A DNA stretch of 64,000 nt, taken from assembly GCF_003334765.1 (NCBI RefSeq), contig NZ_QOWT01000001.1. One strand, 5' to 3'. Made by a program: the position numbers and the translations under genes. The notes beneath the pieces were generated by a model that did not search any database, had not been told where the DNA came from, and saw only the letters and a list, made by a program, of their open reading frames with translations. Every line of letters starts with the position of its first letter. Position 1 is the first letter of the stretch. This document shows, piece after piece, positions 3,508-62,528 of this stretch. The DNA is from Escherichia coli. Its GTDB lineage: Bacteria; Pseudomonadota; Gammaproteobacteria; Enterobacterales; Enterobacteriaceae.

Positions 3508-4117
3508 TTTTACCTCTTTTTTTACATCCCATATTAACGGGGGTGCTTTCTCGCGTTATGTATAAAAAACATACGCGCAATTGTTATAGTGGGAGGGGAA
3601 ACGGCAGGTAATGTTCACTATCTTGCACTTTCAGACAAGTCCTTTGTAATAATCTGTTACATATAACTGAGGCGGGGAATTCAACCATTCCGGGAAATGT
3701 TATCCAGCGTTAAATTTTTCAAAAAACGTAACGGCAGATTTTTTCACTGCACTGAGAGGGGGGTGATGGCTTAACGGCGATATGTTCTGCTATTTAGCGT
3801 TTTTACTAGTGAGATAGTCCAGTTTCTGAAAAATAGCCAGTGTAATGTTTTGTAGGTCAATATTTGTTGCGTGTGTAAATTTAAATGATTTTAACCTGAT
3901 TCTTGCAATGTTTTTACATTGCGACAGCATCGTGATCTTGATCACGAATGAATAGAAAATTTCGCTATTAAAAAAACAATTAACCTGCATTTTTGGTTAT
4001 CCGCAAACGGATTACCTGATGATAACGCTAAGCAATGGCATCATTGACGTTAAAAAGATGTTTTAAAAGAGGATAAAGAAAGGTTATCAATGGGGTAATC
4101 GGTGTTACCCCTTTTCT

Positions 4118-7134: not shown

Positions 7135-9927
<2,793 letters not shown>

Positions 9928-20204: not shown

Positions 20205-21485
20205 ATGTTACGTCCTGTAGAAACCCCAACCCGTGAAATCAAAAAACTCGACGGCCTGTGGGCATTCAGTCTGAATCGCGAAAACTGTGGAATTGATCAG
20301 CGTTGGTGGGAAAGCGCGTTACAAGAAAGCCGGGCAATTGCTGTGCCAGGCAGTTTTAACGATCAGTTCGCCGATGCAGATATTCGTAATTATGCGGGCA
20401 ACGTCTGGTATCAGCGCGAAGTCTTTATACCGAAAGGTTGGGCAGGCCAGCGTATCGTGCTGCGTTTCGATGCGGTCACTCATTACGGCAAAGTGTGGGT
20501 CAATAATCAGGAAGTGATGGAGCATCAGGGCGGCTATACGCCATTTGAAGCCGATGTCACGCCGTATGTTATTGCCGGGAAAAGTGTACGTATCACCGTT
20601 TGTGTGAACAACGAACTGAACTGGCAGACTATCCCGCCGGGAATGGTGATTACCGACGAAAACGGCAAGAAAAAGCAGTCTTACTTCCATGATTTCTTTA
20701 ACTATGCCGGGATCCATCGCAGCGTAATGCTCTACACCACGCCGAACACCTGGGTGGACGATATCACCGTGGTGACGCATGTCGCGCAAGACTGTAACCA
20801 CGCGTCTGTTGACTGGCAGGTGGTGGCCAATGGTGATGTCAGCGTTGAACTGCGTGATGCGGATCAACAGGTGGTTGCAACTGGACAAGGCACTAGCGGG
20901 ACTTTGCAAGTGGTGAATCCGCACCTCTGGCAACCGGGTGAAGGTTATCTCTATGAACTGTGCGTCACAGCCAAAAGCCAGACAGAGTGTGATATCTACC
21001 CGCTTCGCGTCGGCATCCGGTCAGTGGCAGTGAAGGGCGAACAGTTCCTGATTAACCACAAACCGTTCTACTTTACTGGCTTTGGTCGTCATGAAGATGC
21101 GGACTTGCGTGGCAAAGGATTCGATAACGTGCTGATGGTGCACGACCACGCATTAATGGACTGGATTGGGGCCAACTCCTACCGTACCTCGCATTACCCT
21201 TACGCTGAAGAGATGCTCGACTGGGCAGATGAACATGGCATCGTGGTGATTGATGAAACTGCTGCTGTCGGCTTTAACCTCTCTTTAGGCATTGGTTTCG
21301 AAGCGGGCAACAAGCCGAAAGAACTGTACAGCGAAGAGGCAGTCAACGGGGAAACTCAGCAAGCGCACTCTTGCTACCGCGATGACCCAACAACCACAAT
21401 CCCGCGCCCGTCTGGGCGCGGCTCGTGGGATTGCCACTTCATTGACCTTTGTCTGCCTGGCATTTCTGATAGGACCGAGCATTAA
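20205..21485 (+). pseudogene. uidA: beta-glucuronidase, 3'-truncated by an internal deletion; reading frame runs out of frame into uidB sequence
   Basis: Translation matches GH2 beta-glucuronidase from MLRPVETPTREIKKLDGLWAFSL... through ...[14 protein letters not shown] (about residue 388 of 603), then continues as unrelated [10 protein letters not shown]... to a stop at 21485. Confidence 0.85.
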
Positions 21486-28648: not shown

Positions 28649-31011
<2,363 letters not shown>

Positions 31012-37270: not shown

Positions 37271-38866
<1,596 letters not shown>

Positions 38867-47893: not shown

Positions 47894-48017
47894 CATTTTT
47901 TAACTGTTCTACCAAAATTTGCGCTATCTCAATTTGGGCCAGGAAAGCATAACTTAGACTTTCAAGGTTAATTATTTTCCTGGTTTATATTTGTGAAGCA
48001 TAACGGTGGAGTTAGTG

Positions 48018-50116: not shown

Positions 50117-50731
50117 CTATCGAAACAGCGGTTTAACCGCGACAGGAATTAACAGTTGTGATTGCCATTGCGCCAGCGTTAAGCGAGCCAGTTCACCCAG
50201 TGCACGGTAGAAAGGGTGTTCTGCTTTTTCGATAAAAACATCAAGAAAACGTGTTGACCACGGAAAAAGGTGCCATGCCAGCAATTCTTCGCATTCTGTC
50301 TGGCGACCATTCTCCGCCAACCACGCAGCCATCAACAGCAGTGAACCAAAATGATCTTCCGGTTCGTTTTGCTTCATTTCAAACTGAATGCCTTTCTCGC
50401 GCATCCACTGACGAAGTGCCAATGTTGAATCGCCAAACAGCACAGATTCGCGATCCAGCCAGACCGACCCCCACGGCGGAGACGGCAGTGCCCACGGGCC
50501 GACAAACAAACGCTGCCAGGCCTGGGCGTGAGTCTCTTCACACTGTGTCTGAAAAGCCGTCACCAGCGGCGCTAATGACGCTTCTGGTAGAGGCCACTGA
50601 GTTTCCCAGCCGTCACTGGTGAGTACCGCAACCAGAGGTGCGGCTTCCGCACTCTCTGGAGCGTAATAAAACAGCGCGCCCAACACGCGCGCCGCGACAG
50701 AAAAATTATCTTGCTGTGAAAAATGGGTCAT
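50117..50731 (-). CDS. dmsD: Tat proofreading chaperone DmsD
   Basis: ORF track gives 207 aa; trimmed to MTHFSQQDNFSVAARVLGALFYYAPES... (204 aa); TorD/DmsD family. Confidence 0.9.
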   Translation of the reverse strand: MTHFSQQDNFSVAARVLGALFYYAPESAEAAPLVAVLTSDGWETQWPLPEASLAPLVTAFQTQCEETHAQAWQRLFVGPWALPSPPWGSVWLDRESVLFGDSTLALRQWMREKGIQFEMKQNEPEDHFGSLLLMAAWLAENGRQTECEELLAWHLFPWSTRFLDVFIEKAEHPFYRALGELARLTLAQWQSQLLIPVAVKPLFR

Positions 50732-50773
50732 TCCTAACATCCTGAAATGTGCGGGTTGCCCCGCACCAATTTG

Positions 50774-51628
50774 TTAACCTGCAATAGCCATTCCTACTGT
50801 CATGTGCAGGCCATAAAAGAGCACACGCCCGATCATCTCACCGCCAAGTATGAGGATTAGCCCCAGAATAAGTCCGGCAACGTGAGGTTCACGGCGACGA
50901 ATGAGCGGGCAAAGCCAGCATCCAAGACCTGCGCATAACAATACCACACGCCAGACCTGTAAGGAGGCGTAATCTGGTACCAGTGCGCTGGCTTGTTGCA
51001 CGGATGAGTGAATAGACGCCAGAGACAAACCTTGCAGCACAATCACCCCGGCACAAGCGATCAGCGCCAGAACGCTAATGATGGCAAATGGTGTGGTATT
51101 AAATGTAACGCGAGCTGCCCGCAGAATTGCGGCAGCAAGTATTGGACCGCTCAACAATACCGTCAGGAAGAAAGCCAGCGTAGTGTAACCGTTATGCCAG
51201 GTTGGCACGGTGTCGATTTGATACACGCAGGTCATCATCCAGACGAAAATGACGCCGAGCGCCATGCTGAAAAGTAACCAGAGTTTCCCCAACGCTTGCG
51301 GCATTTTACCGATGACTGCCACCAGCCACCATAATCCGCCAACGGCAAAAAATATGGAACCGGCAGCAATCTCGTTACTCAGACCAGAAGCTCCGATTCG
51401 ATTCAGCGAGTTAAACGCCCGCAGTGGCGATCCCAGGTGCATGACAGAGGCAATAAACCCGACGCCCATCAACAGCCAGAGGAAAAACATGCCACGGACA
51501 ATACGCTGACGGTCTGCGTCATTTTTGGCGGCGAACCAGCCAATTCCGCTAACAATCAGCGCGCCTACTACGCATTGACCCAATACGGTAAAGATAACCA
51601 GTGGCCACTCATGCCATCCATTTCCCAT
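50774..51628 (-). CDS. ynfH: DmsC-type membrane anchor subunit of S-/N-oxide reductase
   Basis: ORF track gives 364 aa; trimmed to MGNGWHEWPLVIFTVLGQCVVGALIVSG... (284 aa), 8 TM segments. Confidence 0.88.
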   Translation of the reverse strand: MGNGWHEWPLVIFTVLGQCVVGALIVSGIGWFAAKNDADRQRIVRGMFFLWLLMGVGFIASVMHLGSPLRAFNSLNRIGASGLSNEIAAGSIFFAVGGLWWLVAVIGKMPQALGKLWLLFSMALGVIFVWMMTCVYQIDTVPTWHNGYTTLAFFLTVLLSGPILAAAILRAARVTFNTTPFAIISVLALIACAGVIVLQGLSLASIHSSVQQASALVPDYASLQVWRVVLLCAGLGCWLCPLIRRREPHVAGLILGLILILGGEMIGRVLFYGLHMTVGMAIAG

Positions 51629-51629
51629 T

Positions 51630-52247
51630 TTACACTTCCTCCGGATTAGCCAGATAACCAGTGGTATCGCCGGTCGGGCGGCTGTTGGCGTTAGGTTTGA
51701 TAACGATATTGGGTTTTGTGAAATGCGCGCGCGGCAGTGGCGCGACGGCAGCAAGAGTGCCGTGCTTCTGGCGCAGCTCTTCAATTGGACCGAACTCAAG
51801 TGCACGCAGCGGGCAGGATTCGACACATATGGGTTGTTTCCCCTCGGCGACGCGCGAATAACAACCATCGCACTTCGTCATGTGCCCTTTTTCAGCATTG
51901 TACTGTGGCGCGCCGTACGGACAAGCCATGTGGCAGTAGCGGCAGCCGATACAAACATCTTCATCAACCACCACAAAGCCATCTTCACGCTTATGCATTG
52001 CGCCGCTGGGGCAGACTTTTGTACATGCGGGGTCATCGCAATGGTTACAGGAGATGGAGAGATAATAAGCGAACACGTTCTGGTGCCAGACGCCATTATC
52101 TTCCTGCCAGTCGCCGCCAGCGTATTCATAAATACGGCGGAAACTGACTTCCGGGCCAAGATCTTTAAAATCTTTGCACGCCAGTTCGCAGGTTTTACAG
52201 CCAGTACAGCGGCTGGAATCGATAAAAAATCCATATTGTGTGGTCAT
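51630..52247 (-). CDS. ynfG: DmsB-type 4x[4Fe-4S] ferredoxin subunit
   Basis: 205 aa, four Cys clusters (CTGCKTCELACKD, CNHCDDPACTKVCP, CIGCRYCHMACP, CDGCYSRV...CVESCP). Confidence 0.92.
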   Translation of the reverse strand: MTTQYGFFIDSSRCTGCKTCELACKDFKDLGPEVSFRRIYEYAGGDWQEDNGVWHQNVFAYYLSISCNHCDDPACTKVCPSGAMHKREDGFVVVDEDVCIGCRYCHMACPYGAPQYNAEKGHMTKCDGCYSRVAEGKQPICVESCPLRALEFGPIEELRQKHGTLAAVAPLPRAHFTKPNIVIKPNANSRPTGDTTGYLANPEEV

Positions 52248-52257
52248 GGGCTACTCC

Positions 52258-54681
52258 TTAAACCTTTTCGATCTGGACAAGATTGCTGTGCGACGGGTTT
52301 CCCTTTGCCAGCGGTGAAGGGCGGTGAGAGGTCAGAATATTGATACTGCCGCCGTGATCGACCCGGTCACCAAACATATCCGCTTTAAGCCACGCACCTT
52401 GCCCGATGGCGGTAACGCCAGGCAGAATACGCGGAGTCACTTTTGCGGCAATCAGCATTTCTCCATTATTGTTAAATACCCGCACGGTATCGCCATGACG
52501 GATACCGCGTGCCTGAGCATCAATGGGGTTGATCCACACCTCTTGTGGGCAGGCCTGCTGTAACACATCAATATTGCCGTAGCTGGAGTGGGTACGCGCT
52601 TTGTAATGGAAGCCCGTTAACTGCAGTGGATAGGTTTTCCGCAGGGGATCGTCCCAGCCATCAAAACCTGGGGTATACGCAGGAAGGGGATGAATAATTT
52701 CATCTTTTTTCAATTCCCAGGTATCTGCAATCTTCGCCAGTCGTTCAGAATAAATTTCGATTTTCCCCGAAGGTGTTTTCAACGGGTTTGCCTGTGGATC
52801 TTCACGGAATGCGCGGAAAGCGACGTAGTGTTCTTCCGGGCATTTTTTCTTAAAGATCCCGGTCGTTTTCATCTCCTCGTAGTCGGGCATCTCAGGGTTA
52901 CGTTCCTTCGTTTTCGCATGGAGATATTTGATCCATTCATGCTGACTGCGACCTTCAGTAAAGGTTTGATAAACGTCTGGTCCTAAGCGTTTGGCGACTT
53001 CACTCAGCATCCAGTAGATGGGTTTGCGTTCAAATTTTGCTGAGGTTGCGGGTTGGGCGAGGATCACATAGCCCATATTCCCTGCAGATTCATGAGAGAT
53101 AAGGTCTTCTTGCTCTGTTGGCATCAGGTCGGGCAACAGGATATCGCAATACTTAGCCGAGGCCGTCATGAAGTGGTCAATGCCAACAATCATCTCGCAC
53201 TTGCTGTCATCCTGAAGCACCTCATGGGTGTGATTGATGTCGCCATGTTGATTGATCAATGTGTTACTGGCGTAGCACCATAAAAACTTGATGGGGACAT
53301 CCAGTTTTTCTTTTCCACGAACACCATCACGGGTCGCGGTCATTTCCGTACCATGGTCGATGGCATCTGTCCATGTAAAGACGGAAATCTGCGTTTTAAC
53401 AGGATTCTCGAGCATCGGGAACCATTCTACCCCCAGATCCCAGCTACCTTCGCGTACGCCTGAGTTGCCGCCGTTTATGCCGACGTTGCCGGTGAGAACG
53501 GAAAGCATGGCAATAGCGCGGGATGTTTGCTCGCCGTTGGAATGTCGTTGTGGCCCCCAACCCTGACAAATATAAGCAGGTTTTGCTGAACCGATCTCTC
53601 GTGCCAACTGGATAATTTTTTCTGCCGGGATGCTGGTGATTTTTGCTGCCCATTCCGGCGTTTTAGCTATGCCGTCAGGCCCTTCGCCCAGAATATAGGC
53701 TTTATAATGCGCGTTACGTGGTGCGTTGGCGGGCAGCGTTTTTTCATCGTAACCAACACAATATTTGTCGAGAAATGGCTGATCGACCATGTTTTCAGTA
53801 ATCAGTACCCAGGCAATCGCACAGGCCAGTGCGCCATCGGTGCCAGGGCGAATGGGCAGCCATTCATCTTCACGCCCGGCAGCAGTGTCGTTATAACGTG
53901 GATCGATGACGATCATGCGTGCGTTTGAACGTTCGCGGGCTTGCTCGACGTAGTAAGTGACACCACCGCCGCTCATCCGCGTTTCTGCCGGGTTATTTCC
54001 GAACATAACGACCAGTTTCGTATTGGCGATATCATCCGGGCTGTTGCCATCATTGGCACCGAACATATAACTCATTGCGGCACTGATCTGTGCGGTACTG
54101 TAGCTGCCATAGCGACTGAGAAAACCACCGCAAGAGTTCATCAGACGGTACGGGACGTTTGAGTTGGTGATGTTTCCGCCATCTACGCCTGTTCCGTACA
54201 GGACATGTACAGCCTCATTGCCGTAATCTTTCAGGATCCGCCGAAGATTATCACTGATGGTATCCAGGGCTTCGTCCCAACTTATCCGTTCAAATTTACC
54301 TTCACCGCGCTTGCCGACGCGCTTCATGGGATATTTCAACCTATCAGGATGATTCATCCGTCGGCGGATAGAGCGCCCGCGTAAACACGCTCGAACCTGA
54401 TGATTACCGTAGACGTCGTCACCTGTCGTATCAGACTCCACCCAGTACACGGTGTCATCTTTCACATGCAAACGTAACAGACAGCGGCTCCCGCAGTTAA
54501 CGGTGCAGGAACTCCAGACCGCTTTCTCTTCTACCGGAGCCTCTGCCGCCCGGACCATTTGGGAAAATGGCAGAGTGAAAGCACTGCTTGCCAGCGCAAG
54601 ACTGCCAAGTGCGGAGGTTTTCATCAGACTTCTACGGCTGATTTCAGCCTTCATGAGCGCCTCTGTGGTATGGATTTTCAT
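52258..54681 (-). CDS. ynfF: molybdopterin (bis-MGD) S-/N-oxide reductase catalytic subunit, DmsA paralogue
   Basis: About 807 aa; Tat signal ISRRSLMKTSALGSLALASSAF; N-terminal Cys cluster CTVNCGSRCLLRLHV; alternative start one codon upstream at 54684. Confidence 0.9.
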   Translation of the reverse strand: MKIHTTEALMKAEISRRSLMKTSALGSLALASSAFTLPFSQMVRAAEAPVEEKAVWSSCTVNCGSRCLLRLHVKDDTVYWVESDTTGDDVYGNHQVRACLRGRSIRRRMNHPDRLKYPMKRVGKRGEGKFERISWDEALDTISDNLRRILKDYGNEAVHVLYGTGVDGGNITNSNVPYRLMNSCGGFLSRYGSYSTAQISAAMSYMFGANDGNSPDDIANTKLVVMFGNNPAETRMSGGGVTYYVEQARERSNARMIVIDPRYNDTAAGREDEWLPIRPGTDGALACAIAWVLITENMVDQPFLDKYCVGYDEKTLPANAPRNAHYKAYILGEGPDGIAKTPEWAAKITSIPAEKIIQLAREIGSAKPAYICQGWGPQRHSNGEQTSRAIAMLSVLTGNVGINGGNSGVREGSWDLGVEWFPMLENPVKTQISVFTWTDAIDHGTEMTATRDGVRGKEKLDVPIKFLWCYASNTLINQHGDINHTHEVLQDDSKCEMIVGIDHFMTASAKYCDILLPDLMPTEQEDLISHESAGNMGYVILAQPATSAKFERKPIYWMLSEVAKRLGPDVYQTFTEGRSQHEWIKYLHAKTKERNPEMPDYEEMKTTGIFKKKCPEEHYVAFRAFREDPQANPLKTPSGKIEIYSERLAKIADTWELKKDEIIHPLPAYTPGFDGWDDPLRKTYPLQLTGFHYKARTHSSYGNIDVLQQACPQEVWINPIDAQARGIRHGDTVRVFNNNGEMLIAAKVTPRILPGVTAIGQGAWLKADMFGDRVDHGGSINILTSHRPSPLAKGNPSHSNLVQIEKV

Positions 54682-54741
54682 CATTACTCACTTATTGCTT
54701 TTCAAACAAAATGTCATGCCAGAATTTATGGTTGTCGTGGG

Positions 54742-57168
54742 TTATATTTTTTCGATCTCGACCAGATTAGTGTGCTGCGGGTTTCCCTTCGCCAGTGGTG
54801 AAGGGCGCAGAGTGGTTAGCGTATTCACACAGCCGCCATGGTCGATTTTATCGCCAGACATATTGGCCTCGTGCCAGGCTCCCTGGCCCATAGCGCTAAC
54901 TCCAGGGAGAATACGTGGTGTTACTTTGGCTGGTAGCCGAACTTCGCCACGATGGTTAAACACCCGCACCATATCGCCGTTGGCAATCCCACGTTTCTGC
55001 GCATCTATAGGGTTGATCCACACCTCCTGACGGCAGGCAGCCTTCAGGAGATCAATATTGCCGTAGGTCGAGTGAGTACGGGATTTGTAATGGAAACCAA
55101 ACAGTTGCAGTGGGAAGGTTCTACGTTCAGGGGAGTTCCAGCCTTCAAAGGTTGAGGCATAAACTGGCAATGGGCTTATCACTTCATCTTTTTCCAGTTC
55201 CCAGGTACGGGCAATTTCCGCCAGCCTGCTGGAATAAATTTCAATCTTACCGGAAGGCGTTTTAAGTGGATTTGCCTCGGGGTCGTCACGAAATGCTTTG
55301 TAGGCGACAAAATGGCCATTGGGATCTTTACGCTTATAGATACCCATTTTTTTCAGTTCGTCGTAAGACGGTAACGCCGGATCTTTGGCAAGCATTTTGG
55401 CGTACAGATGTTGTAACCATTGTTCCTGCGTGCGACCTTCTGTGAACTTTTGATAGACGTCAGGTCCAAGACGTTTCGCGACTTCACTCAGGATCCAGTA
55501 AATCGGTTTGCGTTCGAATTTTTCGCTGGTGACAGGCTGGAGGAAAATGAGATATCCCATGTTACCGGCGTAGTCGTTAGGAATAATATCTTCCTGCTCA
55601 ACGGTCATCAGGTCTGGCAGCAGAATGTCGGCATATTTTGCCGATGAGGTCATAAAGTTTTCGATGACCACAATCATTTCGCATTTCGATTCGTCCTGCA
55701 GAATTTCATGCGTTTTGTTGATGTCAGAATGCTGATTAACGAGGGTATTTCCCGCGTAGTTCCAGATGAACTTAATGGGCACATCCAGTTTATCTTTGCC
55801 GCGGACGCCGTCGCGGATTGCCGTCATTTGCGGACCATGATCGATAGCATCTGTCCAGCTGAAGCAGGAGATTGACGTTTTGACCGGATTATCCAGCACC
55901 GGCAGGCGTTCTATGGTAATGGTATAGGTCGATTCACGCGCGCCACTATTTCCGCCGCTGATGCCGACATTGCCCGTCAAAATAGGTAACATAGCAATAG
56001 CGCGTGCAGTCAGTTCGCCGTTTGCCTGGCGTTGTGGCCCCCAGCCCTGGCAGATATAAGCGGGTTTTGCTGTGCCAATTTCACGCGCCAGTTTGATGAT
56101 ACGGTCCTCCGGGATACCGGTAATTTGCGAAGCCCACTGCGGCGTTTTCGCTGTTTTATCGTCACCTTCACCAAGAATATAGGCTTTATAGTGACCATTT
56201 TTGGGTGCATCTGCGGGTAAGGTTTTTTCGTCATAGCCGACGCAGTATTTATCGAGAAAAGGTTGATCAACGAGATTTTCGTTAATCAATACCCAGGCAA
56301 TACCCGCAACCAGCGCGGCATCGGTGCCCGGGCGAATAGGGAGCCATTCGTCTTCACGACCGGCAGCCGTATCGGTATATCGCGGATCGATAACAATCAT
56401 TTTGGCGTTCGATTTCTCGCGCGCTTTTTCAAGAAGATAAGTGATGCCACCACCGCTCATGCGGGTTTCTGCCGGGTTGTTACCAAACATCACGACCAGC
56501 TTGCTGTTTTCAATATCCGTGGTGCTGTTGCCATCATTACTGCCGTAGGTGTAGGGCATGGCACAGGAAATTTGCGCAGTGCTGTAGGAGCCATACTGGT
56601 TGAGTGAACCGCCGTAGCAGTTCATCAGGCGTTTGACCGCCGAGGCTGATGGCGAAGAGCGGGTCATATTGCCGCCAACGATCCCCGAAGAGTACTGAAT
56701 ATATACAGCCTCATTGCCATATTGTTCGACGGTTTTCTTCAGGCTACTGGCGATAGTATCCAGGGCTTCATCCCAGCTAATCCGTTCGAATTTGCCTTCG
56801 CCGCGTTTGCCCACGCGTTTCATTGGGTAATTCAAGCGATCGGGATGATTAATACGCCGGCGGATGGAGCGACCGCGCAAACAGGCGCGTACCTGATGGT
56901 TGCCGTACTCATCGCTGCCGGTATTGTCAGTTTCCACCCAGGTCACTTCATTATCTTTAACATGTAGACGAAGTGCACAGCGGCTACCACAGTTGACGGA
57001 ACAGGCACCCCAGACCACTTTTTCGCGGGCCTGTTGTACCGCTGCTGCTGCATTGCGCAGGGTAAACGGCAAAGAAAAACCGCCTGCAGCCAGCGCCAGA
57101 GAACCTATCGCGGTAGATTTAACGAGTGTTCTGCGGCTGATGCCCACCATTCGTTCATTTTTGGACAT
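54742..57168 (-). CDS. ynfE: molybdopterin (bis-MGD) S-/N-oxide reductase catalytic subunit, DmsA paralogue
   Basis: 808 aa; Tat signal GISRRTLVKSTAIGSLALAAGGF; Cys cluster CSVNCGSRCALRLHV; colinear paralogue of ynfF. Confidence 0.9.
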   Translation of the reverse strand: MSKNERMVGISRRTLVKSTAIGSLALAAGGFSLPFTLRNAAAAVQQAREKVVWGACSVNCGSRCALRLHVKDNEVTWVETDNTGSDEYGNHQVRACLRGRSIRRRINHPDRLNYPMKRVGKRGEGKFERISWDEALDTIASSLKKTVEQYGNEAVYIQYSSGIVGGNMTRSSPSASAVKRLMNCYGGSLNQYGSYSTAQISCAMPYTYGSNDGNSTTDIENSKLVVMFGNNPAETRMSGGGITYLLEKAREKSNAKMIVIDPRYTDTAAGREDEWLPIRPGTDAALVAGIAWVLINENLVDQPFLDKYCVGYDEKTLPADAPKNGHYKAYILGEGDDKTAKTPQWASQITGIPEDRIIKLAREIGTAKPAYICQGWGPQRQANGELTARAIAMLPILTGNVGISGGNSGARESTYTITIERLPVLDNPVKTSISCFSWTDAIDHGPQMTAIRDGVRGKDKLDVPIKFIWNYAGNTLVNQHSDINKTHEILQDESKCEMIVVIENFMTSSAKYADILLPDLMTVEQEDIIPNDYAGNMGYLIFLQPVTSEKFERKPIYWILSEVAKRLGPDVYQKFTEGRTQEQWLQHLYAKMLAKDPALPSYDELKKMGIYKRKDPNGHFVAYKAFRDDPEANPLKTPSGKIEIYSSRLAEIARTWELEKDEVISPLPVYASTFEGWNSPERRTFPLQLFGFHYKSRTHSTYGNIDLLKAACRQEVWINPIDAQKRGIANGDMVRVFNHRGEVRLPAKVTPRILPGVSAMGQGAWHEANMSGDKIDHGGCVNTLTTLRPSPLAKGNPQHTNLVEIEKI

Positions 57169-57267
57169 AACTCACTCCCTGTTCTTTATCGTTATATAAA
57201 AGTTTATATATTGAATATTTAGCGCGCTAACAATAGAGGGAGTCTACCCATTTTGGGTTAAGAATTA

Positions 57268-57281
57268 TTAATCCATATCAA
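57268..57281 (-). promoter_or_regulatory. candidate FNR-type site upstream of ynfE
   Basis: Minus strand reads TTGATatggATTAA (9/10 match to TTGAT-N4-ATCAA), about 100 bp upstream of the ynfE start; function inferred only. Confidence 0.3.
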
Positions 57282-57366
57282 TAGAAGGGTATGAGTAATA
57301 AGGTGGGATTATGTTGTATGTTCAAATCGCCGGATTTGTCATATCCGGCGTTCAGTCGATAATGTG

Positions 57367-57672
57367 TTACTGCGGTTCGGCAGGCGCGCCATCCTGGCTA
57401 GACTGCGCGGGAGCAGAGACGTTACCGCTGGTGGTGCGGGTATAGAGAATTTTATGCGTATCATTAGCGCAATGGCCGACGACCTGGGAATCAGGCTGAT
57501 CAACCTGGTCATTGGGTACAATACTTAACGTGAAGCTGCTTTCGGGTACGCCATTATTGATAATGCGCTGTGATATATCGCTCTGTATGCGCTCACAGGA
57601 TCCCGGCGCGGCGAGTACCGCGGGTGAGGCGAGGGCGAGCAGAAGCGCGGCACAGCAGGTTGAGAGTTTCAT
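57367..57672 (-). CDS. ynfD: small secreted protein YnfD (DUF1161)
   Basis: ORF track gives 115 aa; trimmed to MKLSTCCAALLLALASPAVLAAPGSCERIQSDISQRIINNG... (101 aa) with signal peptide. Confidence 0.85.
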   Translation of the reverse strand: MKLSTCCAALLLALASPAVLAAPGSCERIQSDISQRIINNGVPESSFTLSIVPNDQVDQPDSQVVGHCANDTHKILYTRTTSGNVSAPAQSSQDGAPAEPQ

Positions 57673-57779
57673 CATAAGCTCCTTACGCGAAGATAACTTC
57701 TTTAAGCATAGCATTTAACGTGTAAAGTACTGTATTTGCTACTATGATTGAGAATCATCTCTACTCTCTGGTGACTGTT

Positions 57780-58490
57780 GTGAAATACAAATTACTACCA
57801 TGCTTACTCGCGATATTCCTCACAGGATGTGACCGCACAGAGGTAACACTTTCATTTACCCCTGAGATGGCCAGTTTCTCTAATGAATTCGATTTTGATC
57901 CGCTGCGTGGTCCGGTAAAAGATTTCACTCAGACATTAATGGATGAGCAAGGTGAAGTGACGAAACGTGTTTCTGGGACTTTGTCGGAAGAAGGCTGTTT
58001 TGATTCACTCGAATTACTGGATCTGGAAAATAATACCGTGGTCGCTCTGGTACTGGACGCCAATTATTACCGTGATGCCGAGACGCTGGAGAAGAGAGTA
58101 CGTTTACAGGGAAAATGCCAGCTAGCAGAATTACCTTCTGCCGGGGTGAGTTGGGAAACCGATGATAATGGCTTCGTGATTAAAGCCAGCAGCAAACAAA
58201 TGCAGATGGAATATCGCTATGATGATCAGGGTTATCCGCTGGGTAAAACCACGAAAAGTAACGACAAAACATTATCTGTCAGCGCCACGCCATCAACGGA
58301 TCCGATCAAAAAATTAGATTACACAGCGGTTACTTTACTGAATAATCAACGGGTTGGTAATGTAAAACAGAGCTGTGAATATGACAGTCACGCTAATCCG
58401 GTGGACTGTCAGCTAATCATTGTTGATGAAGGAGTAAAACCCGCCGTCGAACGGGTTTACACCATCAAAAATACGATCGATTATTATTAA
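57780..58490 (+). CDS. ynfC: UPF0257-family lipoprotein YnfC
   Basis: In-frame GTG at 57780 gives (M)KYKLLPCLLAIFLTGCDRTEV... (236 aa) with lipobox LTGC; the ORF-track ATG at 57744 adds 12 codons. Confidence 0.8.
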   Translation: MKYKLLPCLLAIFLTGCDRTEVTLSFTPEMASFSNEFDFDPLRGPVKDFTQTLMDEQGEVTKRVSGTLSEEGCFDSLELLDLENNTVVALVLDANYYRDAETLEKRVRLQGKCQLAELPSAGVSWETDDNGFVIKASSKQMQMEYRYDDQGYPLGKTTKSNDKTLSVSATPSTDPIKKLDYTAVTLLNNQRVGNVKQSCEYDSHANPVDCQLIIVDEGVKPAVERVYTIKNTIDYY

Positions 58491-62509: not shown

Positions 62510-62528
62510 CTATTTGATAAATATTAAA

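Follow-up and report, generated by a model that had tools for sequence, protein, structure and literature searches.

A weak but conserved FNR site at the class II promoter of the Escherichia coli ynfEFGH-dmsD operon

Introduction

The dmsABC operon of Escherichia coli, which encodes the DMSO reductase paralogous to the ynfEFGH-dmsD products, shares with ynfE both class II activation by FNR and repression by NarL. The FNR site of dmsA is located at -41.5 (Myers 2013, PLoS Genet 9:e1003565, PMC3688515), and control of dmsA by ModE as well as FNR has been published. At class II FNR promoters, the dimer bound about 41.5 (+/-4) bp upstream of the start, where it overlaps the -35 region, contacts sigma-70 and the alpha subunit and recruits polymerase (Myers 2013, PMC3688515). 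The srnABCD operon of Enterobacter cloacae SLD1a-1, which specifies a selenate reductase of the ynfE type, is orthologous to ynfEFGH-dmsD and carries an orthologous box, ttgatgaggattaa. This sequence was named as the FNR site of the srnA operon, and selenate reduction in that organism is regulated by FNR.

The ynfE promoter itself has also been described. Its activation by FNR and repression by NarL are credited by three later papers to Xu, Busby and Browning 2009 (J Bacteriol 191:3172). A paper citing Xu 2009 reported a memory-circuit reporter, rebuilt from the ynfE promoter, that was on only in anaerobic growth without nitrate, and repression of ynfF by NarL was predicted in one further paper. 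In the genome-wide study of Myers 2013 (PMC3688515), ynfEFGH-dmsD is assigned to category 1, the directly FNR-activated operons, with a single FNR motif at -40.5 and a ChIP-seq summit at 1,656,036 (Table 1); EcoCyc or Kim et al. 2012 supplied the start sites, and under previous direct evidence that FNR binds at ynfE the table has 'None'. The motif is given as exactly TTGATATGGATTAA, with a PatSer score of 13.01, ln p of -11.5 and the entry 'at FNR ChIP-seq peak: +', and does not overlap with Fis, H-NS or IHF enrichment (Table S6). Three peak-calling algorithms detected the peak in the ChIP-seq data, and it was also seen by ChIP-chip (Table S5). The sigma-70 signal at ynfE rises from 27 aerobic to 709 anaerobic reads (Table S2), and the ratio of aerobic to anaerobic expression is 0.027 (Table S12). 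The operon is listed as 'activated' in all three comparisons of wild type and fnr-mutant transcriptomes (Table S8).

Published experiments have shown that FNR occupies the site in vivo, that the site is located at -40.5, that anaerobic induction depends on FNR, and that nitrate and NarL repress the promoter. The locus analysed here is the one described by Xu 2009 and Myers 2013 (PMC3688515), with the same 14-mer in the same role and with no difference between them; the FNR site, its position and its function are already published for this exact sequence. The original prediction, made from the DNA letters, had proposed a candidate FNR-type site for anaerobic control upstream of the operon. An FNR site is indeed present, supported by the FNR ChIP peak and the fnr-dependent induction (Myers 2013, PMC3688515), and only the word 'candidate' has to be dropped, since the site is established in the literature.

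Results and Discussion

Organization of the ynfE control region

The analysis covered a stretch of 64,000 nucleotides of E. coli DNA (the window), which is 99.97–100% identical to E. coli K-12 MG1655. Positions 56600–58000 are 100% identical to MG1655, and of 5426 complete E. coli genomes, 5389 contain this region. According to the RefSeq annotation of the identical MG1655 region and the open reading frames, the operon extends over 50117..57168 on the minus strand and consists of ynfE (54742–57168), ynfF (52258–54681), ynfG (51630–52247), ynfH (50774–51628) and dmsD (50117–50731), all on that strand and in that order, as had been predicted. The ATG of ynfE is at 57168. The upstream gene, ynfD (57367–57672, minus strand; RefSeq annotation of the identical MG1655 stretch), has its stop codon at 57367–57369, and the spacer between the two genes comprises the predicted 198 bp (57169..57366) with a GC content of 35%.

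A hairpin, CGCCGGAU-augacaa-AUCCGGCG, is located just 3' of the ynfD stop codon (57328..57350, minus strand). Its folding energy of -15.2 kcal/mol corresponds to z = -3.97, and none of 200 shuffled sequences folds as well. GC-rich hairpins of unrelated sequence are found at the same position in other genera. The hairpin is the probable terminator of ynfD and forms the upstream boundary of the ynfE control region; as a terminator conserved in position, it would insulate the ynfE promoter. Given this hairpin and the unrelated GC-rich ones elsewhere, the control region is a self-contained unit of about 160 bp. A terminator scan of 57000–57800 called none and missed the ynfD hairpin, because its T-run is weak.

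Sequence and score of the FNR box

The FNR box TTGATATGGATTAA occupies 57281..57268 on the minus strand (1,657,956–1,657,969 in NC_000913.3), and its assignment draws on sequence, matrix score, Table S6 of Myers 2013 and conservation. The box is centred at 57274.5, 106.5 bp upstream of the start codon of ynfE. The predicted resemblance to the FNR consensus is borne out, with nine of ten positions matching TTGAT-N4-ATCAA; only motif position 12 deviates, with T in place of C (window position 57270, minus strand).

A chance match in AT-rich intergenic DNA, with the anaerobic induction being indirect or mediated by another sequence, was considered as an explanation of this resemblance. The low GC content of the spacer favors it, as does the frequency of near-consensus sequences: the window contains seven sites with at most one mismatch, compared to 3.15 expected, and seven were reached in 4 of 100 shuffles. 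A bare consensus match is thus not beyond chance. To score the box, a symmetrised weight matrix was derived from the 62 other ChIP-bound sites in Table S6 of Myers 2013, with ynfE left out. In this leave-one-out matrix the ynfE box scores 13.2–13.4 bits, which is the third best score in the 64-kb window, and a site as good appears in 0.8% of shuffles of the 198-bp spacer. Four positions in the window reach the score of the ynfE box, compared to 1.44 expected from Markov-1 simulations. Matches as good as the ynfE box are found inside pntA, inside uidA and upstream of dtpA, and the pntA, uidA and tppB/dtpA motifs are all unbound in ChIP-seq (Myers 2013, Table S6, PMC3688515). Since unbound sites have equal or better matrix scores, the score alone proves little, and from sequence alone the case for a real site would be suggestive.

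It is conservation, together with the published binding data, that makes the ynfE box more than a chance match. Against chance, the exact 14-mer lies under an FNR ChIP-seq and ChIP-chip peak, in which it is the only motif (Myers 2013, PMC3688515); the spacing between the box and a conserved -10 hexamer is that of a class II promoter (see below); and the box recurs in 37 of 54 orthologous loci, where about 0.002 are expected per locus, in surroundings that have freely diverged. The chance explanation is accordingly given next to no credence.

For a bound FNR site, the ynfE site is weak, as judged from its low matrix score and its low ChIP-chip signal. Among the 62 bound sites of the matrix, whose scores range from 11.7 to 21.1 bits, only eight score below it. 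The ln p of -11.5 is near the cut-off of -10.75 used by Myers 2013 (PMC3688515), and the ChIP-chip peak average is 0.69, compared to 1.2–3.0 at narG, ydfZ and slyA.

Conservation of the FNR box

Conservation was assessed at three levels. Eighty loci with YnfE relatives were fetched from other species, and the upstream regions of 23 of them were aligned; an orthologue set was defined as the 54 loci with at least 80% protein identity and an ATG start; and variation at close range was sampled with four of the most divergent E. coli genomes (96.3–97.3% identity over 301 bp) and E. albertii. In the last sample, the FNR box and its flanks form an invariant block of 23 nt, and the substitutions are located in the terminator loop and the spacers. 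Across the 23 aligned species, the TTGA and the TAA of the box are invariant.

A box of the form TTGAY-N4-NTYAA, in the right orientation and at most 200 nt upstream, is present in the 37 loci mentioned above, which represent 12 of 20 genus labels; the expectation from control sequence of the same loci is 0.0016 per locus. The box is 100–110 nt from the ATG in 27 of these 37 loci, and 119–161 nt from it in Buttiauxella, Cedecea and relatives. The srnA box ttgatgaggattaa is found at the aligned position in the Enterobacter and Lelliottia loci, 101.5–103.5 nt upstream of the ATG; it shares the off-consensus ATTAA arm with ynfE but differs in the central four bases. In 17 of the 54 loci, including those of Klebsiella, Raoultella, Pluralibacter and Yokenella, TTGACCnGGGATAA or a similar sequence is aligned with the box, and its proximal half-site is degraded to GATAA or AATAA, with a poor score.

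All 37 boxed orthologues have the off-consensus T at position 12 (ATTAA rather than ATCAA), and the consensus C is found in none of them. This residue may reflect selection for a low-affinity site that answers only to abundant active FNR, or it may reflect shared ancestry; its conservation hints that a deliberately weak site is being maintained. The same T in the proximal arm could be due to a constraint unrelated to FNR, such that the palindrome would serve mainly CRP, an FNR paralogue, or another factor that prefers an ATTAA arm, with FNR being secondary. The first base of the half-site separates FNR (TTGA) from CRP (GTGA), and the CRP consensus has a spacer of 6 bp. The ynfE arms, TTGAT and ATTAA, have a T rather than a G at the first position and are separated by 4 bp rather than 6, and a CRP site is ruled out by the half-site sequence and the spacer length. 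No data pointing to a factor other than FNR were found, and both FNR occupancy and FNR dependence have been demonstrated directly (Myers 2013, PMC3688515). That FNR should be secondary at this site is thus hardly conceivable, and the box is treated below as an FNR site.

Promoter anatomy

The -10 element is assigned to the hexamer TAGACT (57241..57246, minus strand), based on its match to TATAAT at four of six positions and on its conservation. Its leading TA is invariant in the 23 species, and a TAnnnT hexamer is kept at this position in most of them. The distance from the centre of the FNR box to the first base of the hexamer is 28.5 bp. The position of the hexamer predicts a transcription start at an A at 57234 (minus strand), which would result in a 66-nt leader and would place the FNR box at -47 to -34, with its centre at -40.5. 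This value, obtained from our own reading of the -10 element, agrees with the published figure (Myers 2013, PMC3688515), which also excludes a start more than 60 bp away from the site; an absence of FNR dependence of ynfE is excluded by the activation seen in three of three comparisons of wild type and fnr mutant. Both outcomes had been named with the original prediction as grounds for rejecting it.

No recognisable -35 element is present at the ynfE promoter. A missing -35 element is usual for class II activator-dependent promoters. A generic promoter scan of 57000–57800 did not detect the ynfE promoter, because the scan needs a -35 element; it gave one promoter-like match on the plus strand (57336–57363), which is at chance level (1.2 expected in the same scan). 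The sequence TTAATA inside the FNR box was considered as a -35 element and rejected, the spacing to the -10 element being 19 bp.

FNR bound at this box might also act otherwise than by class II activation of ynfE: by repression, by class I activation, or on some other promoter, such as one reading antisense to ynfD. If the -10 element were another TAnnnT hexamer, TATTGT (57235–57230), the box would lie near -51.5, and the plus-strand match just described could be taken for an antisense promoter. TATTGT was rejected as the -10 element, since the TA that is invariant in 23 species marks TAGACT and not TATTGT, and the plus-strand match is no more frequent than expected. Moreover, the published -40.5 was derived from a known start (Myers 2013, PMC3688515), and both expression and sigma-70 occupancy go up, not down, with active FNR. 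Binding in another mode is therefore regarded as very unlikely. The reading in which TTGATATGGATTAA is the single FNR-binding site of a class II FNR-dependent ynfEFGH-dmsD promoter is almost certainly correct. The activation contacts made by FNR at ynfE are presumed by analogy with established class II FNR promoters.

A NarL-type site between the FNR box and the -10 element

A pair of NarL-type heptamers in the 7-2-7 arrangement, TAACCCA-AA-ATGGGTA, is located at 57245..57260 on the minus strand (-26 to -11). The pair matches TACYYMT-N2-AKRRGTA at 12 of 14 positions, with a perfect right heptamer, and a score of at least 12 is reached at only three positions in the window. It occupies the gap between the FNR box and the -10 element and overlaps the first two bases of the latter. 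In other genera the pair has the form TACCCCn-AA-ATrrGTA, with T57260 and TA57246–57245 being invariant. In E. coli strain 64.1 the right heptamer reads ATAGGTA, which still conforms to the NarL consensus.

The pair is the likely site of the published repression by nitrate through NarL. With its dimer bound at -26 to -11, NarL would obstruct polymerase, which fits that repression. An additional lone heptamer, TACTCAT (57291..57297, minus strand; -63 to -57), is an exact match to TACYYMT. It is located upstream of the FNR box, is conserved within E. coli and almost completely conserved in E. albertii, and could not be aligned in other genera; its significance is uncertain.

Proposed mechanism of the ynfE promoter

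The elements described above can be combined into a model. Without oxygen, FNR with its [4Fe-4S] cluster dimerises and binds the box at -40.5. Bound FNR overlaps the place that a -35 element would take. The promoter consists of the weak -10 hexamer TAGACT without a -35 element, and FNR recruits sigma-70 RNA polymerase to it. Transcription from near 57234 would then proceed through the 66-nt leader into ynfE. With nitrate present, phospho-NarL on the 7-2-7 site (-26 to -11) would block polymerase.

As a discovery, the ynfE FNR site carries little weight, being correct but ordinary. Its value is one of calibration: a weak, genuine FNR site was picked from raw sequence amid equally good matches that are unbound. 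The known architecture (FNR box, NarL 7-2-7 site and -10 element) was recovered in full.

Conserved elements in the leader

A palindrome resembling a ModE operator, CAATATATA-aacttt-TATATAACG, is located in the leader at 57190..57213 on the minus strand (+22 to +45), with its centre 33 nt before the ATG. It was compared to an idealised operator, CGTTATATA-N6-TATATAACG, which was derived from the modA sequence of the K-12 reference and from the published consensus. The ynfE palindrome matches this operator at 16 of 18 positions, compared to 16 for the modA operator, 15 for moaA and 15 for dmsA. It is the best match to the idealised operator in the window, the runner-up scoring 14, and the pattern TATAT-N7-TAYAT is found in the window at 57190..57213 only, with 0.09 occurrences expected.

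E. albertii, Salmonella and Citrobacter carry the palindrome 32–33 nt upstream of the ATG, and the ynfE leaders of Enterobacter, Klebsiella and Kosakonia lack it. Within E. coli and E. albertii, its arms are invariant and only the N6 varies. Judged from the sequence alone, the palindrome is probably functional. A search of Rfam with 56900–57700 at a permissive E-value gave no match. The 66-nt leader therefore does not correspond to the Moco motif or to any other known riboswitch.

The dmsA promoter has its elements in the same order, with a terminator of the upstream gene, an FNR box (TTGATACCGAACAA), NarL-consensus heptamers and, further downstream, a ModE-type palindrome (CGATGTATA-N6-TATATAGCG, 15/18). 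The two promoters differ in spacing and in the NarL elements. The palindrome is 92 bp from the centre of the FNR box in dmsA and 73 bp from it in ynfE, and the distance between FNR box and annotated ATG is 177.5 bp in dmsA compared to 106.5 bp in ynfE. The NarL heptamers of dmsA are single and scattered, whereas ynfE has a clear 7-2-7 pair. The Enterobacter leader, unlike that of E. coli ynfE, has no ModE-type palindrome.

Control by ModE is documented for dmsA, whereas no publication on ModE at ynfE was found in the literature searched, which excluded genome-wide ModE studies. So strong a match has probably been picked up already by genome-wide ModE scans or SELEX studies. It is thus doubtful that the palindrome is at once a working ModE operator, providing a third (molybdate) input to ynfE, and new to the literature. 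If it is a ModE operator, it would tie expression of the molybdoenzyme and selenate reductase to the molybdate supply, mirroring the paralogous dmsA, and such control would be restricted to the Escherichia-Salmonella-Citrobacter branch.

A second conserved leader block, closer to the start (57219..57230, minus strand; +5 to +16), is in E. coli the 12-nt perfect palindrome TTAGCGCGCTAA. Conservation of its TTAGC core reaches at least 90% in the 23 species, and E. coli and E. albertii show no variation in the block. It could be matched to no known factor or RNA structure.

Other observations in the window

The FNR-matrix matches with scores similar to that of the ynfE box are located at 3932–3945 (upstream of tppB/dtpA), 20854–20867 (uidA) and 38690–38703 (pntA). 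Two further matches of similar score are TTGATAAATATTAA at 62514–62527, between rspB and a remnant of the Qin prophage integrase, and TTGTTTTACCTCAA at 30799–30812. A sequence of lower score (9.9 bits), TTGCGCTATCTCAA at 47919–47932, is located about 90 nt upstream of the start (48018) of ynfK, a bioD paralogue. The ynfK gene is listed as directly FNR-activated, with a ChIP-seq peak (Myers 2013, PMC3688515). The coordinate of that peak maps about 50 bp from TTGCGCTATCTCAA, and the offset between peak and motif at ynfE is of the same kind.

Positions 276–45237 of the window, apart from a gap at uidA-uidB, are collinear with MG1655 (NC_000913.3) at 99.97% identity, with 12 mismatches. At the gap (21369/21370), the window is without 1,039 bp of NC_000913.3 (1,693,868–1,694,906), so that uidA has lost its 3' end and uidB its 5' end. 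Based on this deletion and the 12 mismatches, the source of the DNA is a close relative of K-12 rather than MG1655 itself. A BLAST comparison of the window with the reference also gave staggered self-matches inside rsxC (7181–7701), with a period of 96 bp and 87–91% identity; the rsxC coding sequence thus contains a tandem repeat array in this segment.
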